Shown here piece by piece: positions 215 through 13,283 of a stretch of 13,283 nucleotides of DNA. The stretch lies in UHGV virus genome UHGV-1611552. One strand, 5' to 3'. The DNA is from a virus. Both the position numbers and the translations under genes were made by a program. The stretch's first letter is position 1, and each line of letters starts with the position of its first letter. The notes beneath the pieces are model-generated. The model made no database searches and was not told the origin of the DNA. It saw nothing but the letters and a program-made list of their open reading frames with translations.

Positions 215-243
215 ACAAAAAAGCCCGCCTGAACCGGCGGGCT
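215..243 (-). terminator. Rho-independent terminator downstream of lom
   Basis: On the minus strand: AGCCCGCC-GGTTCA-GGCGGGCT (8 bp GC-rich stem, 6 nt loop; plus coords 222..243) followed directly by TTTTTTGT (plus 215..221). Lies between the lom stop (270..272) and the stf start (205). Confidence 0.6.
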
Positions 244-892: not shown

Positions 893-917
893 TAAAAAAG
901 GCGCCATTTCTGGCGCC
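893..917 (-). terminator. Rho-independent terminator downstream of J
   Basis: On the minus strand: GGCGCCA-GAAA-TGGCGCC (7 bp stem, 4 nt loop; plus 900..917) followed by TTTTTTATT (plus 891..899). Lies between the J stop (937..939) and the lom start (869). Confidence 0.6.
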
Positions 918-3900: not shown

Positions 3901-4416
3901 CAGGTTATCCACCACCACCGAGGCCAGATACTGCGAGGTGGTTTTGCCCTTAATGGTGATGTCTTTTTCCGTCACCCAGCCACCGTTACGTTGTATCTGA
4001 ACCAGCAGGCGGACTTCCGACGGATTCCTGTCTCCCTTTGAGGTGGTTTCCACCAGTGCCTGTACACCGAAGGTAAAGCGCAGACGGTCGATGTTTGCCG
4101 ACGTAATGGTACGGGTGATCGGCGTGTCATATTTCACTTCCGTACCCAGCACCGTCTCGGAGCCGGAGGATTCAAATCCCTCCGGCGGTGTCTGCTCCTG
4201 CTCACCGGCCCGGAACACCACCGTGACGCCGGATATATTGGTATTCCCCTCACTGTCCAGCACCGGCGTACTGTTCAGCAGCACGCTTTTTAATCCATCC
4301 ACCGGACCTTCAACCGGCCCTTCGCTGATGGCATCGATCACACTCAGCAGCTGCGTGGACTTCAGGTTGTCCTTCGCTTCGCGCGGGGTATGCCCCTTAC
4401 TGCTGCCTTTACCCAT
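937..4416 (-). CDS. J: Tail tip / host specificity protein J (central tail fibre), 1159 aa
   Basis: ATG at 4416..4414, TGA at 939..937. N-terminus [34 protein letters not shown]... matches lambda gpJ as recalled. It is the largest ORF and sits 60 nt downstream of I, as in lambda. Length differs from the 1132 aa I recall for lambda J, and the distal third appears divergent. Confidence 0.95.
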
Positions 4417-4430
4417 TCGTCATGCTCCAT

Positions 4431-4458
4431 AAACGATAAAACCGCCCGGAGGCGGTTT
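4431..4458 (-). other. GC-rich hairpin with U-rich 3' tail in the I-J intergenic region
   Basis: On the minus strand: AAACCGCC-TCCG-GGCGGTTT (8 bp stem, 4 nt loop; plus 4439..4458) then T-ATCGTTT (plus 4431..4438), followed by the J SD GGAG and ATG. Confidence 0.5.
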
Positions 4459-4476
4459 CACATAAAACATTTTGCA

Positions 4477-5148
4477 TCAGCGACCAATCACCACAACCTG
4501 ACCACCATCCCCTTCGTCTGCCGTGCTGATCTCCTGAGAGACCACCCGCGACCCCACGCGCATTTCACCGTACAGAACGGGCAGAACATTGCCCTGGGCA
4601 ACCATGTTATCCAGTGAGGAGAAATAGGTGTTCTGTTTGCCGTTATCTGTACTTGCTGCCGTGGGCGTCCTGGCTTTCGGTGCCAGCATCTGCGCCACAC
4701 CACCAAGTACCATACTGGCACCGAGAGAAAACAGGATACCGGTCATACCACCGGCCCCAATGGCTGCCCCCCATGCTGCAAGAGTGGCTCCGGCAGTAAA
4801 GAATGATCCGGCAATGGCGGCAGCCCCCAGAACAATCTGGAATACGCCCCCTGACTTGGCCCCGGCGACTCTGGGAACAATATGAATCACAGCGCCGTCA
4901 GGCAGAGTCTCATGTAACTGCGCCGTTAACCCGGACGTGCTGACGTCCCGCCCGGCAATCCGTACCTGATACCAGCCGTCGCTCAGTTTCTGACGAAACG
5001 CCGGGAGCTGTGTGGCCAGTGCCCGGATGGCTTCAGCCCCCGTTTTCACACGAAGGTCGATGCGGCGGCCAAATCGTTGTAAATCCCCGTAAAGGCAGAT
5101 GCGCGCCATGCCCGGTGACGCCAGAGGGAGTGTGTGCGTCGCTGCCAT
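4477..5148 (-). CDS. I: Tail assembly protein I, 223 aa (N-terminal ubiquitin-like domain, Gly/Ala-rich hydrophobic C-terminal half)
   Basis: ATG at 5148..5146, TGA at 4479..4477. Sequence MAATHTLPLASPGMARICLYGDLQRFGRRIDLRVKTG... matches lambda gpI as recalled. Overlaps the 3' end of K by 103 nt in a different frame, as in lambda. Confidence 0.9.
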   Translation of the reverse strand: MAATHTLPLASPGMARICLYGDLQRFGRRIDLRVKTGAEAIRALATQLPAFRQKLSDGWYQVRIAGRDVSTSGLTAQLHETLPDGAVIHIVPRVAGAKSGGVFQIVLGAAAIAGSFFTAGATLAAWGAAIGAGGMTGILFSLGASMVLGGVAQMLAPKARTPTAASTDNGKQNTYFSSLDNMVAQGNVLPVLYGEMRVGSRVVSQEISTADEGDGGQVVVIGR

Positions 5149-5789
5149 TTGTCGGTATACCTCTCTCGTTTACTCAGTTGTTCAGGAATATGGTGCAGCA
5201 GCTCGCCGTCGCCGCAGTAAATTGCGGCGTGATTCGGCACCGATGAACCAAAACAGCACAGCAGAACATCGCCCGGCTGTGCCGCTGACAACGGCACCTG
5301 ATACAGCCCTGTGGCCTCCAGATTATCCAGATAGAGATTCTGACCGTTACGCCACCAGTCATCCTCGCGATGAAAATCCGGCATCTCAATCCCCGCCAGA
5401 TGGTAAGCATCCCGGAACAGCGTGTAACAGTCCGTCACCCCGTGCTCAAAGCGCCGCCCGGTGAGATGCGGCACACAGCGGAACTTGTGAATCGCCCCCC
5501 GGCAGACCAGCCACCACGGCAAATCACTCTGCACCTGCAGCCGCCGGTCGGCCTCACTCAGCCAGGGCAGACCACCGGGGTGGCTGTGGACCAGCGCCAC
5601 AATCTCTCTCTGCATTTCTGCACTCAGCCAGTCCTCCGGCGACATCCGGAAATACTCCTCCGGCTCACCGGAGATATTCACGCAGGGAAAATATCTTTCC
5701 CCCTCCGGCGTGCTTACCACGAAGCCGCACGACTCCGCTGGCGCACATCGCCGGGCGTGCGCCAGAATCGCTGATTCTGTCTCTGTCAT
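5046..5789 (-). CDS. K: Tail assembly protein K (JAB/MPN domain + NlpC/P60 domain)
   Basis: Reading frame open from 5831 to the stop at 5048..5046. JAMM-type motif HSHPGGLPWLSEAD (HxHx7Sx2D) at about 5547..5588; NlpC/P60-like Cys in GVTDCYTLF at about 5427..5429. Two candidate starts: ATG at 5789 (247 aa, 4 nt after the L stop, weak SD) or ATG at 5645 (199 aa, the length I recall for the lambda annotation, GGAGGAG SD). The longer form is given here because it includes the region upstream of the HxH motif. Confidence 0.8.
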   Translation of the reverse strand: MTETESAILAHARRCAPAESCGFVVSTPEGERYFPCVNISGEPEEYFRMSPEDWLSAEMQREIVALVHSHPGGLPWLSEADRRLQVQSDLPWWLVCRGAIHKFRCVPHLTGRRFEHGVTDCYTLFRDAYHLAGIEMPDFHREDDWWRNGQNLYLDNLEATGLYQVPLSAAQPGDVLLCCFGSSVPNHAAIYCGDGELLHHIPEQLSKRERYTDKWQRRTHSLWRHRAWRASAFTGIYNDLAAASTFV

Positions 5790-5793
5790 GGGA

Positions 5794-6492
5794 TTACTGC
5801 GAAAGTTTGTTAATGGAAAGGAAGCCGCCAAAGTTGCCGACGTTATTGCGAAACTTACAGCCGCTCAGGCATTTGCTGCATTTATCCTTCGTGATATCGG
5901 ACGTCGGCTGATCATATTCATCCGCGACCGCCGGACCGTGATAACCGCACTCATCACCGCGATAGGTCCAGGTGCAGGTGTTGGCCAGCATGATACGTCC
6001 CGGAAAAACGGCACCGTCCGTTTCCGTCGGCGTGGACAGTACAAAAGAGGCACTCACCGCGCTCAGTTCGCTGCACTGCTCGATGCGCCAGCGGCTGATC
6101 ACCTCCTGCTCCGGATCGGCGTCACTGTTTCCGTTGACGAAGTTCACCGCATCCAGAAAACGGGCGTAAACCTTACGCCGGACCACCGTTCCGCCGACCA
6201 GACTCTGCAGATCTTCCGCCATCCCGGTGACCATACCGTACAGGTTAGAAACCGTCAGCGTGGGGCGCGTACTGGTGCCTTTGCCATTCAGTTCAAAACC
6301 ACTCCCCTGAATGGGATACGGCTGATACTGTCGCCCCTGCCAGGTGACCGGCTCACCTTTTTCGTTCTGCTCATTACAGAAAAAATAACGTTCTCCACCG
6401 ACCTCTGTCAGGTCGATTTCCCAGAGCACCACGCTGGCCGACTGCTCCGCACGGGTGCATTCATTCAGTGTTTCCTGCCGGATATCCTGCAT
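5794..6492 (-). CDS. L: Minor tail protein L, 232 aa
   Basis: ATG at 6492..6490, TAA at 5796..5794. MQDIRQETLNECTRAEQSASVVLWEIDLTEVGGERYFFCNEQ... matches lambda gpL as recalled. Start overlaps the M stop (TGATG). Confidence 0.9.
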   Translation of the reverse strand: MQDIRQETLNECTRAEQSASVVLWEIDLTEVGGERYFFCNEQNEKGEPVTWQGRQYQPYPIQGSGFELNGKGTSTRPTLTVSNLYGMVTGMAEDLQSLVGGTVVRRKVYARFLDAVNFVNGNSDADPEQEVISRWRIEQCSELSAVSASFVLSTPTETDGAVFPGRIMLANTCTWTYRGDECGYHGPAVADEYDQPTSDITKDKCSKCLSGCKFRNNVGNFGGFLSINKLSQ

Positions 6493-6821: not shown

Positions 6822-9379
6822 CGTCCACCTCCGGAGAACAGGCCACCATCACGCATCTGTGTCTGAATTTCATCACGGGCACCCTTGCGGGCCATGTCAT
6901 ACACTGCCTTCATCATCTGTGGACCTGGCAGACCATTCGTACCGTCGTTCTGAATCACCACGTTGTTGTTCTGCTCAAACCTGATACCCTCTGAACGCCG
7001 CATTTGCGCCGGACTTCCGGTGCCACCGACATAACCGCCGGTGGCATAGCCGCGCATCAGCCGGTAGAGATTTCCCACGCCAATCCGGCTGGTTGCCTCC
7101 TTCGTGAAGACAAATTCACCACGGTGAACAATCCCCGCTGGCTCATATTTGCCGCCGGTTCCCGTAAATCCTCCGGTTGCAAAATGGAATTTCGCCGCAG
7201 CGGCCTGAATGGCTGTACCGCCTGACGCGGATGCGCCGCCACCAACAGCCCCGCCAATAGCGCTGCCGATACTCCCGACAATCCCCACCATTGCCTGCTT
7301 AAGCAGAATTTCTGTCATCATGGACAGCACGGAACGGGTGAAGCTGCGCCAGTTCTGCTCACTGCCGGTCAGCATCGCCGCCATATTCTGTGCAATACCA
7401 TCAAAGGTCTGCGTGGCTGCACTTTTTACCTGCGACATACTGTCCGTGGCGCTCTCTTCCCACTCACTCCAGCCGGACTTCAGGCCTGCCATCCAGTTCC
7501 CGCGAAGCTGGTCTTCAGCCGCCCAGGTCTTTTTCTGCTCTGACATGACGTTATTCAGCGCCAGAGGATTATCGCCATACTGTTCCTTCAGGCGCTGTTC
7601 CATGGCTTCCCGCGCTGCCTGCCGGTCAGTCAGCCCCCGGTTTTTTGCATCAATGGCGGCCCGTTTTGCCCGTTGTTGCTGTGCGAATTTATCCGCCTGC
7701 TGTGCCAGCGCGTTCAGGTGCTCCTGATAGGTGACCTTGTCGCCAAGTACAGCCAGCTGGCGTTTGTACTCCAGCGTCTCGTCTTTATGCGCCAGCAGGG
7801 ATTTCTCCTGTGCGGACAGCTGGCGACGTTGTGCCGCCTCCTCCAGTACCGCGAACTGACTTTCTGCCTTCCACAAATCCCGGCGCTGCTGGCTGATTTT
7901 CTCATTCGCTCCGGCATGCTTCTCCAGCATCCGGAGTTCTGCCTGAAGCGTCAGCAGGACAGCATGAGCACTGTCTTCCTGACGATCGCCCGCAGACACC
8001 TTCACGCCGGACTGTTTCGGCTTTTTCAGCGTCGCTTCATAGTCCTTTTTCGCCGCCGCCATCAGCGTGTTGTAATCTGCCTGCAGGATTTTCCCGTCTT
8101 TCAGTGCCTTATTCAGTTCTTCCTGACGGGCGGTATATTTCTCCAGCGGCGTCTGCAGGCGTTCGTAAGCCTTCTGCGCCTCTTCGGTATATTTCAGCCG
8201 TGACGCTTCGGTATCGCTCTGCTGCTGCGCATTTTTGTCCTGTTGACTCTGCTGCTCAGCCTTCTTTCGGGCGGCTTCAAGCGCAAGACGGGCCTTTTCA
8301 CGATCATCCCAGTAACGCGCCCGCGCTTCATCGTTAACAAAATAATCATCCTTGCGCAGATTCCAGATATCGTCCGCTTTCTTAAACGCGGCCTCTGCCT
8401 TAATCAGCATCTCCTGCGCGGTATCAGGACGACCAATATCCAGCACCGCATCCCACATGGATTTGAATGCCCGTGCTGTCCTGTCTGCCCAGGTTTCCAG
8501 CGTGCCCATGTTCTCTTTCAGGCGGCGGGTCTGGTCATCAAACCCTTTCGTCGCGGCCTCGTTCGCCGCCTGCAATGCCCCGGCTTCATCGCCGGAACGC
8601 TGCAACTGAGCAACATACGCAATCTGCTCCGCCGTCACGTTATGGAACTGGCGTGCCATCGCCGTCAGCCCCGACGTCGGGTCTGTGGTCAGCTTCCCGA
8701 AGGCTTCAGCGACCTTGTCCACCTCCACGCCGGATGCAGAGGAGAAACGCGCCACACTCTGGCTGATGGACGCAATCTGAGCCTCACCGCTTACTCCCGC
8801 CTTAACCAGTGCGCTGAGTGACTCGCTGGTCTGGTTAAACGTCAGCCCTGCCGCCTGCCCGGCTCTGGACAGGACCAGCATACGATCTGCCGTCAGTCCC
8901 GCCTGATTGCCGGAAAGGACCAGCGTTTTGTTGAAATCGGACAGGGTTGAGTTGCCCTGATACCAGGCATACGCCAGCGCTCCGGTCGCCACCGCCAGCG
9001 AGGTGGCCCCCACCATCGGCAGGGTGATCGCACCGGCAAGCCCCCTGAACATGGGGATCATCCCGCCGAAGGAGTCCTTAACCTGACCACCCTGTTGCAG
9101 CAGGATCAGCCACGGACTTTGCCCGCCTGCAAGCTGCGTGGCCACGTCAGTGAACTGCGCAGGCAGCATACGCATGGCGGCTTTATACTGCCCGACGGAA
9201 ATCCCCGCTTTCTGTGCAGCCAGCGCCTGTCGGCTCAGCGACTGTTCAACGACTGCCGCTGTTTTTTTCGCATCACTTTCCGTACCGGAAAAATGACGCC
9301 TGACTCTGGCCATCTGCTCGTCAAATCTGGCCGCATCCAGACTCAAATCAACGACCAGATCGCCTACCGGTTCAGCCAT
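6818..9379 (-). CDS. H: Tail tape measure protein H, 853 aa
   Basis: ATG at 9379..9377, TGA at 6820..6818. 853 aa equals the lambda gpH length. Long charged, coiled-coil-like central region (...EAARKKAEQQSQQDKNAQQQSDTEASRLKYTEEAQKAYERLQ...), hydrophobic N-proximal segment and Gly-rich C-proximal segment. Start overlaps the end of G-T by 8 nt (ATGGCTGA), as in lambda. Confidence 0.95.
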   Translation of the reverse strand: MAEPVGDLVVDLSLDAARFDEQMARVRRHFSGTESDAKKTAAVVEQSLSRQALAAQKAGISVGQYKAAMRMLPAQFTDVATQLAGGQSPWLILLQQGGQVKDSFGGMIPMFRGLAGAITLPMVGATSLAVATGALAYAWYQGNSTLSDFNKTLVLSGNQAGLTADRMLVLSRAGQAAGLTFNQTSESLSALVKAGVSGEAQIASISQSVARFSSASGVEVDKVAEAFGKLTTDPTSGLTAMARQFHNVTAEQIAYVAQLQRSGDEAGALQAANEAATKGFDDQTRRLKENMGTLETWADRTARAFKSMWDAVLDIGRPDTAQEMLIKAEAAFKKADDIWNLRKDDYFVNDEARARYWDDREKARLALEAARKKAEQQSQQDKNAQQQSDTEASRLKYTEEAQKAYERLQTPLEKYTARQEELNKALKDGKILQADYNTLMAAAKKDYEATLKKPKQSGVKVSAGDRQEDSAHAVLLTLQAELRMLEKHAGANEKISQQRRDLWKAESQFAVLEEAAQRRQLSAQEKSLLAHKDETLEYKRQLAVLGDKVTYQEHLNALAQQADKFAQQQRAKRAAIDAKNRGLTDRQAAREAMEQRLKEQYGDNPLALNNVMSEQKKTWAAEDQLRGNWMAGLKSGWSEWEESATDSMSQVKSAATQTFDGIAQNMAAMLTGSEQNWRSFTRSVLSMMTEILLKQAMVGIVGSIGSAIGGAVGGGASASGGTAIQAAAAKFHFATGGFTGTGGKYEPAGIVHRGEFVFTKEATSRIGVGNLYRLMRGYATGGYVGGTGSPAQMRRSEGIRFEQNNNVVIQNDGTNGLPGPQMMKAVYDMARKGARDEIQTQMRDGGLFSGGGR

Positions 9380-12320: not shown

Positions 12321-12716
12321 TTATTGCATTCTGGCCAGGCCGCGCTCTGTCATTTCAGCTGCCACACCGGCAGAGACACGGAACGCCGTTCCCGGCAGCA
12401 CAAATGCCACAGCCTCATCCCGCGTGGCGTGAAGTGCATCAGTATGCAGCGTCACCAGTGCCACAACCGTGACCAGAGCAGCCGTATCAGTCACGGTATC
12501 CGTCTGCGCTGATACCACCTCATTTTCATGTCCGGTCAGCGCATTTTCCGGGCTGACAGATGTGTCCTGACCGGCAGCGTCATCCGTGTCATCAAGCTCC
12601 TCTTCCAGCTCTGCCACACGGAGCGCCAGTTCTTCTTTCGTCCCCGTCAGGCTGACATCACGGTTCAGTTGCTCACCCAGCACCTGAAGACGGGCAATCA
12701 GTTCATCTTTCGTCAT
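12321..12716 (-). CDS. FI: DNA packaging / head assembly protein FI, 131 aa from the ATG chosen here (132 aa recalled for lambda)
   Basis: ATG at 12716..12714 with GGAGGA SD, giving MTKDELIARLQVLGEQLNRDVSLTGTKEELALRVAELEEELDD.... TAA at 12323..12321. The ORF-track start at 12755 lies inside a hairpin and 2 nt after the E stop, so the downstream ATG, whose position relative to the E stop matches lambda, is preferred. Confidence 0.85.
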   Translation of the reverse strand: MTKDELIARLQVLGEQLNRDVSLTGTKEELALRVAELEEELDDTDDAAGQDTSVSPENALTGHENEVVSAQTDTVTDTAALVTVVALVTLHTDALHATRDEAVAFVLPGTAFRVSAGVAAEMTERGLARMQ

Positions 12717-12737
12717 GGACTCCTCCACAGAGAGAAA

Positions 12738-12755
12738 ATGGCCCCGAAGGGCCAT
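12738..12755 (-). other. Perfect hairpin with UUCG tetraloop between E and FI
   Basis: On the minus strand: ATGGCCC-TTCG-GGGCCAT (7 bp stem, UUCG loop), beginning 2 nt after the E stop codon and followed by TTTCTCTCT, then the FI SD and ATG. Confidence 0.55.
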
Positions 12756-12757
12756 GA

Positions 12758-13283
12758 TTACGCCAGTTGAACGGACACGAACTCATCAGGATCAGCCAGC
12801 AGCATCAGCGGTGCTGACTGAATCATGGTGAACTCTCGCGCCGGATCGCCGGATGTCTTCCAGTTTTTCGGATAACGGGGAGACGCATTAATACCCTCAC
12901 TCAATGCATCCGCATCCTGAATACAGCCATAGGTGCGCAGACCGCGTGCATGAGTGTTACCCAGCACCATCGTGTTGTCCGGCAGGAAGTTCTTTTTGAC
13001 GCCGTTTTCCACGTACTGTCCGGAATACACGACGATGGCCACATCGCCATACATTCCCTTATAAGACACCGCTTTGCCCAGGTCTTTTACCGCTGTCTCC
13101 AGTTCGGAATGAGAGCCGCGACGGGTATCCAGCTTCTCCCTGACGGCTTTGAAGGAACGGAACAGCGCCCAGCCTTTCGGGTCAAACACGATGATATTCA
13201 CCACGCCGCTGGCGTTCAGCGCGTAGGCTTCGATATCGTCGGTCGGGTCATACGTGGACTTGTCACGCTTGCTCCACTCCGTG
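12758..13283 (-). CDS. E: Major capsid protein E, C-terminal portion (N-terminus lies beyond the window end)
   Basis: Frame is open from the window edge at 13283 to TAA at 12760..12758. Hand translation of the edge gives ...TEWSKRDKSTYDPTDDIEAYALNASGVNIIVFDPKGWALFRSFKAVREKLDTRRGSHSELETAV...SVQLA, consistent with lambda gpE as recalled. The ORF-track start at 13204 is a GTG inside the gene, not the true start. Confidence 0.9.
   Translation of the reverse strand, partial: TEWSKRDKSTYDPTDDIEAYALNASGVVNIIVFDPKGWALFRSFKAVREKLDTRRGSHSELETAVKDLGKAVSYKGMYGDVAIVVYSGQYVENGVKKNFLPDNTMVLGNTHARGLRTYGCIQDADALSEGINASPRYPKNWKTSGDPAREFTMIQSAPLMLLADPDEFVSVQLA

Follow-up and report, generated by a model that had tools for sequence, protein, structure and literature searches.

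A short GC-rich RNA hairpin stands directly behind the major capsid gene E of a lambda-like phage, and the aligned relatives indicate that such a hairpin is universal behind gpE-family capsid genes, which is the comparative addition of this analysis. The conserved unit, as the same comparison shows, is a hairpin in a conserved position and not a terminator, given that its sequence, loop and tail all vary among lineages, and these alignments show that both purifying and compensatory selection act on the hairpin as RNA. Its proposed function is held more tentatively. The E-FI hairpin may block 3'-5' exonucleases and so stabilise the D-E message upstream of it, as one of several punctuation hairpins of the late operon, a proposal to which somewhat less than an even chance is given.

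The window, which is the whole stretch of 13,283 nucleotides analysed from the virus genome UHGV-1611552, covers the late morphogenetic genes of a lambda-like phage or prophage of Escherichia coli, encoded on the minus strand. Over its full length it is 95-96.6% identical to lambda-like phages (e.g., PhiR46_1, Chlobot and ev099), and its genes are ordered E (3' part), FI, FII, Z, U, V, G/T, H, M, L, K, I, J and lom. The E gene of the window is 92-99% identical to lambda-like phage genes annotated 'major capsid protein E', and lambda E is placed equivalently. Lambdoid late genes are expressed as a single long RNA from pR' by a Q-modified, terminator-resistant RNA polymerase. The E-FI junction is composed of the following elements, listed in the direction of transcription:

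12758..13283, minus strand: 3' part of the major capsid gene E, which continues past the end of the window; its stop codon, TAA, is at 12760-12758.
12749..12755, minus strand: 5' arm of the hairpin, AUGGCCC, which holds an ATG (12755-12753) in frame with FI.
12745..12748, minus strand: UUCG tetraloop closed by a C-G pair, assigned from sequence and fold.
12738..12744, minus strand: 3' arm of the hairpin, GGGCCAU, assigned from sequence, fold and pair counts.
12729..12737, minus strand: pyrimidine-rich tail, UUUCUCUCU, an imperfect U-tract assigned from sequence.
12720..12726, minus strand: Shine-Dalgarno sequence of FI, GGAGGAG, 11 nt past the hairpin and partly paired with UCCAU in a predicted mini-helix.
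12321..12716, minus strand: FI coding sequence (DNA packaging chaperone), with its AUG at 12716-12714 and a product starting MTKDELIARL; lambda FI is annotated at the equivalent ATG.

In the minus-strand RNA the E stop codon UAA is followed by UC and then by AUGGCCC-UUCG-GGGCCAU at 12755-12738, a 7-bp stem with 5 GC pairs and a 4-nt loop. The initial annotation of this DNA had described the hairpin exactly, including its minus-strand letters, its distance of 2 nt from the E stop and the in-frame ATG at 12755. Within the hairpin, CCC-UUCG-GGG (12751-12742) has the Watson-Crick stem and the C-G closing pair that define a C(UUCG)G tetraloop. Folding of the minus strand gave the same structure, with -12.3 kcal/mol (z = -3.3) for the isolated 18-mer and the hairpin present in both the MFE and the centroid structure of its 76-nt context. 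In a 421-nt context, the inner five pairs were predicted with probabilities of 0.98-0.99.

By dinucleotide shuffling, perfect 7-bp GC-rich tetraloop hairpins are expected about once per window, and about five times if loops of 3-8 nt are allowed. The E-FI hairpin by itself is thus not significant, because roughly one per 13 kb would arise by chance. Four of the seven distinct perfect hairpins of the window (at least 7 bp) lie in its ~3.6% of intergenic sequence, an enrichment for which the binomial estimate is ~5e-5. Placement and conservation are what decide the significance of the E-FI hairpin. The chance expectation is compatible with a reading in which the hairpin has no function of its own and is a palindrome that arose by chance, or else a feature of the DNA (for example a cruciform, a site bound by a protein, or a recombination junction where the head-shell module meets the head-completion module). 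In favour of the DNA-level variants, similarity between the lambda type and the phage 21 type ends near the E/FI junction, where matches cover the E part only. This reading is nonetheless highly improbable in the light of the comparative evidence.

The comparison drew on 450 related loci, whose sources were phage records, contigs of IMG/VR and bacterial genomes taken one per species. Usable sequence 3' of the gpE-family capsid gene was available at 423 loci, which reduced to 111 different sequences with 40 different core hairpins. A GC-rich hairpin was present in 111 of the 111 distinct sequences, beginning anywhere from just inside the stop codon to ~22 nt past it, with a median energy of -13.4 kcal/mol and a weakest value of -9.6 kcal/mol. 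All 40 hairpin types therefore lie at or below -9.6 kcal/mol, a level reached by 4.5% of control windows (70 nt of upstream coding sequence from the same loci), and this difference argues against a hairpin without function. Furthermore, at least ten unrelated stem sequences occupy the post-E position (5' arm/3' arm):

xxGGCCC/GGGCCxx: lambda, N15, phi80, Kluyvera, Trabulsiella and others.
CGGGGGC/GCCCCCG: phage 21.
CGGGAGC/GCUCCCG: a compensatory variant of the phage 21 stem.
UGGCGAGC/GCUCGCCA: a further stem class.
UCAGGGC/GCCCUGA: Cedecea.
GCACCACGGUC/GGCCGUGGUGC: Trabulsiella guamensis.
CGUGGGAC/GUCCCACG: a further stem class.
GAAGGGCC/GGCCCUUC: a further stem class.
AGGGGCC/GGCCCUU: a further stem class.
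UGGUCCC/GGGGCCA: Erwinia.

Two observations were made on the loci themselves. In Shigella flexneri CP182557, the gpE homologue is seemingly disrupted, with an early in-frame stop counted from the start of the match, and the hairpin downstream of it, with a UUAG loop, is still intact; this locus is probably a decaying prophage. In addition, roughly three dozen assemblies from unrelated bacteria (Pseudomonas, Shewanella, Kitasatospora, Paenibacillus and Akkermansia among them) carry gpE at the identity that lambda itself has to the window protein (~94% at the amino-acid level), frequently on contigs that are short and of low coverage or that measure ~48.4 kb. These look like lambda DNA contamination or spike-in and not like prophages.

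Covariation was examined by counting pairs in an alignment of 40 distinct sequences of the lambda/N15 family. The inner five pairs (GGCCC) are invariant in this family and are uninformative on covariation, since they never vary. At the outermost position, A-U and G.U pairs are each found in 13 sequences and G-C in 11; at the second position, U-A is found in 25 and C-G in 6. Cells able to pair amounted to 96%, compared with 33-56% when the 3' partners were slid by 1-3 columns, and the covariation score was matched or exceeded in 0 of 500 shuffles. Where close relatives differ by a single base in the stem, the change is a transition that still allows a G.U pair in the sense RNA (e.g., A-to-G at 12755 in the lambda type; GCCUCCG, GUCCCCG and GGGGGU in the phage 21 type). 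The same variants would give A.C mismatches on the opposite strand, which indicates that the selected object is the sense-strand RNA and speaks against both a DNA palindrome and an antisense RNA. Compensatory changes and the unrelated replacement stems likewise argue against absence of function.

Several candidate explanations were rejected on these and related grounds. A chance palindrome or DNA cruciform was discarded on conservation and on the sense-specific G.U pairs, and a terminator acting on the antisense strand was discarded because the complementary hairpin has a CGAA loop and no U-tail. An RNase III site was also rejected, given that RNase III needs roughly two helical turns and a 7-bp stem falls far below this length.

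The initial annotation had named conservation and covariation of the stem among the means of checking its interpretation, and the stem is indeed conserved, its outer pairs covary and unrelated stems have replaced it at the same position. The interpretation is supported in part, namely as to selection for a sense-strand RNA structure; the UUCG loop and the in-stem AUG are not conserved. The loop, which had been stressed, is replaced in close relatives by UUAG (11 loci), UUCU (2) and UUCA (1), and other lineages carry UGUC, AUUC, UGUU, UUUC, GCAA, GCGA, CACG, GAAAU, UAAAU or longer loops, with loops of 5-7 nt included. Extra-stable loops recur on unrelated stems. UUCG is found, closed as C(UUCG)G, on the Cedecea prophage stem, UCCG or UGCG loops occur in several lineages as well as in the I-J hairpin, and GNRA loops occur in two lineages. 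High stability therefore seems to be favoured without being obligatory, as UNCG and GNRA loops recur on stems of unrelated sequence.

The in-stem ATG at 12755, which had been pointed out as in frame, lies in the reading frame of FI and 39 nt upstream of its start (ORF 12321..12755), but the corresponding codon is GUG, CUG, GCG, CCG or ACG in relatives. An N-terminal extension of FI from this ATG was rejected because there is no upstream Shine-Dalgarno sequence, the codon varies and the annotated ATG has the strong GGAGGAG. In the phi80 record (JX871397), FI (469-921) starts at the in-stem GTG, and in HK225 FI (505-921) starts at the downstream ATG; the E-FI intergenic sequences of the two phages are identical. 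The upstream FI start of phi80 is probably an annotation artefact.

The tail is no better preserved. Among relatives it spans sequences from UUUUUUCUGG to CUGGAGGA, AUACCCAG and GAUUAAUA, and CUGGAGGA has no U-run. These tails bear on the reading of the hairpin as a weak (leaky) intrinsic terminator or attenuator, at which some polymerases would stop after E and transcription of FI and downstream genes would be lowered. A consensus scan does list the hairpin as terminator-like (7-bp stem, 5 GC pairs, tail TTTCTCTCTG), and orthologous hairpins are labelled 'putative rho-indep. transcription terminator' in the N15 record and 'rho-independent terminator' in that of HK225. The tail of the window itself has 5 U in 8 positions and a borderline terminator score of ~+8, which is a rough value given that a d'Aubenton-Carafa-type formula was used in approximate form and with modern energies. 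By this approximate measure 12 of the 40 hairpin types score above zero. However, most lineages have a degenerate U-tract or none, and the score is negative in the remaining 28 types, including lambda (-3.5) and, clearly so, N15, phi80 and phage 21. Furthermore, the late genes are transcribed by a terminator-resistant polymerase, and the tail genes, among them that of the abundant major tail protein V, all follow the hairpin with no further late promoter, so that only negligible termination would be tolerable. The Q-modified polymerase, the downstream tail genes and the unconserved U-tract together make termination unlikely as the primary role. The partial-terminator role suggested by the initial annotation is thus weakened, although the borderline, slightly positive score of the window's own tail is in its favour, and the evidence argues against the 'terminator' label of the databases as a description of the main function of the hairpin.

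A post-transcriptional role fits best, because the RNA structure is strictly kept regardless of sequence, loop and tail. Three roles had been put forward for the hairpin, namely a 3' stabiliser, a partial terminator and an attenuator of translation into FI, and of these the 3' stabiliser fits best. Two features are those expected of a stabiliser: a stable hairpin lies directly 3' of the more abundantly expressed cistron within the same transcription unit, and structure is kept in preference to sequence, with compensatory changes in the sense RNA. In the proposed mechanism, Q-modified RNA polymerase would read through hairpin terminators to produce a late transcript of ~22 kb, and the hairpin would therefore form only once the RNA has left the polymerase. 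The transcript would then be cut downstream, for instance by RNase E in the single-stranded U/C-rich tail, and the GC-rich stem would stall the 3'-5' exonucleases PNPase and RNase II, both of which are impeded by stem-loops. The D-E capsid message would thereby outlive the message of FI and the downstream genes and could supply the hundreds of capsid subunits needed per virion. On unmodified polymerase, the hairpin and its imperfect U-run might act as a weak intrinsic terminator, which would be a side property.

Several considerations weigh against an exonuclease barrier, among them the spacing to FI and the I-J hairpin described below. Sampson and colleagues (PNAS, 1988) reportedly attributed the differences in yield among lambda late proteins mainly to translation initiation, which would leave little for mRNA stability to explain. 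In addition, each terminating ribosome should partly melt a hairpin of the lambda type, since it lies only 2 nt past the E stop.

The position of the hairpin relative to FI offers another line of interpretation. In 38 of the 39 types with a locatable FI start, 17-26 nt separate this start from the end of the stem, whereas the gap between the E stop and the stem varies from -2 to 22 nt. The constraint may thus relate to FI and not to E, because the stem-to-FI spacing is the steadier of the two. The main stem never takes in the Shine-Dalgarno sequence of FI in the relatives examined. In the lambda type, a weak mini-helix, GUGGA/UCCAU, is predicted between 12728-12724 and 12719-12715 (pair probabilities ~0.7), and it covers part of the Shine-Dalgarno sequence and the AUG of FI. 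In the N15 type, a UCC(A) that directly follows the E stop might pair with UGGA of the Shine-Dalgarno sequence around the main hairpin. Such predicted helices may, on marginal support, be a means to keep FI translation low or to couple FI to termination of E.

These features underlie the reading of the hairpin as a putative translational insulator, or element of the FI ribosome-binding context, which would stop ribosomes that have finished the heavily translated E from sliding on and re-initiating and would set a low rate of FI initiation, with a stable hairpin placed immediately beyond the footprint of a 30S subunit at the FI start. The narrow stem-to-FI distance, which is kept whatever the stem, is consistent with it, as are the exclusion of the Shine-Dalgarno sequence from the main stem, the mini-helix of the lambda type and the anti-Shine-Dalgarno-like UCC(A) of the N15 type. 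However, a distance of 17-26 nt is also expected from simple compaction of a tail, a Shine-Dalgarno sequence and a spacer, and similar hairpins follow D, I, J and lom without an evident step in expression like that from E to FI. The auxiliary helices are moreover weak (3-5 bp) and not conserved between families. An insulating role is regarded as quite unlikely.

The exonuclease-barrier proposal extends to the other junctions of the late operon, at which the hairpins are as follows:

4439-4458, minus strand: I-J hairpin, AAACCGCC-UCCG-GGCGGUUU, followed by UAUCGUUUAUGGAG and the J start.
900-917, minus strand: terminator-like hairpin behind J, GGCGCC-AGAA-AUGGCGCC plus UUUUUUAUU.
222-243, minus strand: terminator-like hairpin behind lom, AGCCCGCC-GGUUCA-GGCGGGCU plus UUUUUUGUG.
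J02459 6097-6118 (lambda): D-E hairpin, GGCCGC-CUGU-GCGGCU, then UUUUUUU, in the 55-nt D-E gap.

Intergenic gaps of at least 40 nt in the window are all filled by hairpins (E-FI, I-J, post-J and post-lom). The I-J hairpin lies between the I stop at 4479-4477 and the J start at 4416 on the minus strand, and it shares its stem with lambda; the loop is UCCG in the window and UGCG in lambda, both of the UNCG class. In the late operon of lambda, gaps of at least 40 nt all hold a hairpin as well (D-E, E-FI, I-J, J-lom and lom-orf401), and the remaining late junctions in current records are at most 15 nt long or overlapping. The old J02459 record also has a 148-nt gap between L and K, which was not counted as real because this stretch is coding in the window (ORF 5046..5831). 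Late-operon spacers thus seem to exist only where a hairpin stands. D and E are the two proteins most abundant in the virion, and the genes of both have a hairpin directly 3', but a rule that a hairpin marks an abundant protein is not general, since the I-J hairpin follows a low-copy gene.

A broader proposal is that the post-D, post-E and post-I hairpins, with those behind J and lom, are sequence-independent punctuation that cuts the late transcript into segments of differing stability. It is plausible but doubtful. If it were true, mRNA decay, and not translation initiation alone, would set the ratios of capsid to accessory proteins in lambdoid phages. In a variant suggested by the constant spacing of 17-26 nt to FI, the hairpin may bar ribosomes from re-initiating from E into FI. 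If the hairpin shapes the E:FI ratio, a post-transcriptional layer would be added to the textbook account of how lambda obtains capsid subunits by the hundred and just a few assembly factors from one transcript, and a compact, portable part would be available for tuning gene ratios in synthetic operons.

The E-FI hairpin is already known as a sequence feature of a familiar kind, and mechanistically it is nothing new. An identical 18-nt hairpin is found in lambda (J02459) at 7163-7180, again 2 nt after the E stop, where the record leaves it without annotation; within the E-FI region only the tail differs, being UUUUCUCUCU in the window and UUGUUUCUCU in lambda. N15, phi80 and HK225 have GUGGCCC-(AUUC or UGUC)-GGGCCAC at the equivalent place, and mEp237 is counted among the phages with an orthologous E-FI hairpin. 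Searches of Rfam with the whole window gave no match at the gathering threshold, and a permissive scan of 12600-12900 returned chance-level matches only (14-16 bits against gathering thresholds of 35-45). Among the full-text papers searched, also for the hairpin sequence itself as DNA and as RNA, none dealt with the E-FI hairpin or reported an experimental test of its function.

Hairpins of the form (X)2-8CUUCGG(Y)2-8 are common in the intergenic regions of many phages, where they have varied functions that include transcript stabilisation (PMC8948821, summarising Tuerk et al., 1988). The E-FI hairpin shares the loop, the closing pair and the intergenic site with these intercistronic C(UUCG)G hairpins, whereas the tetraloop is not required at the E-FI position. 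A second comparison is with intrinsic terminators, such as T-phi, which stands behind the major capsid gene 10 of T7. The shared features are a GC-rich hairpin and a U-containing tail right after the major capsid gene, and the post-J and post-lom hairpins of the window have the same intrinsic-terminator design. However, the U-tract is imperfect at the E-FI junction and absent at many orthologous positions, and the operon is Q-antiterminated and read through. In the malEFG, puf and pap mRNAs, the segment upstream of an intercistronic hairpin is stabilised by it. Like the malE-malF REP, Rhodobacter puf and pap hairpins, the E-FI hairpin is a stable stem-loop 3' of the more highly expressed cistron; it differs from REP elements in being unrelated to them in sequence and in consisting of one short 7-bp hairpin.
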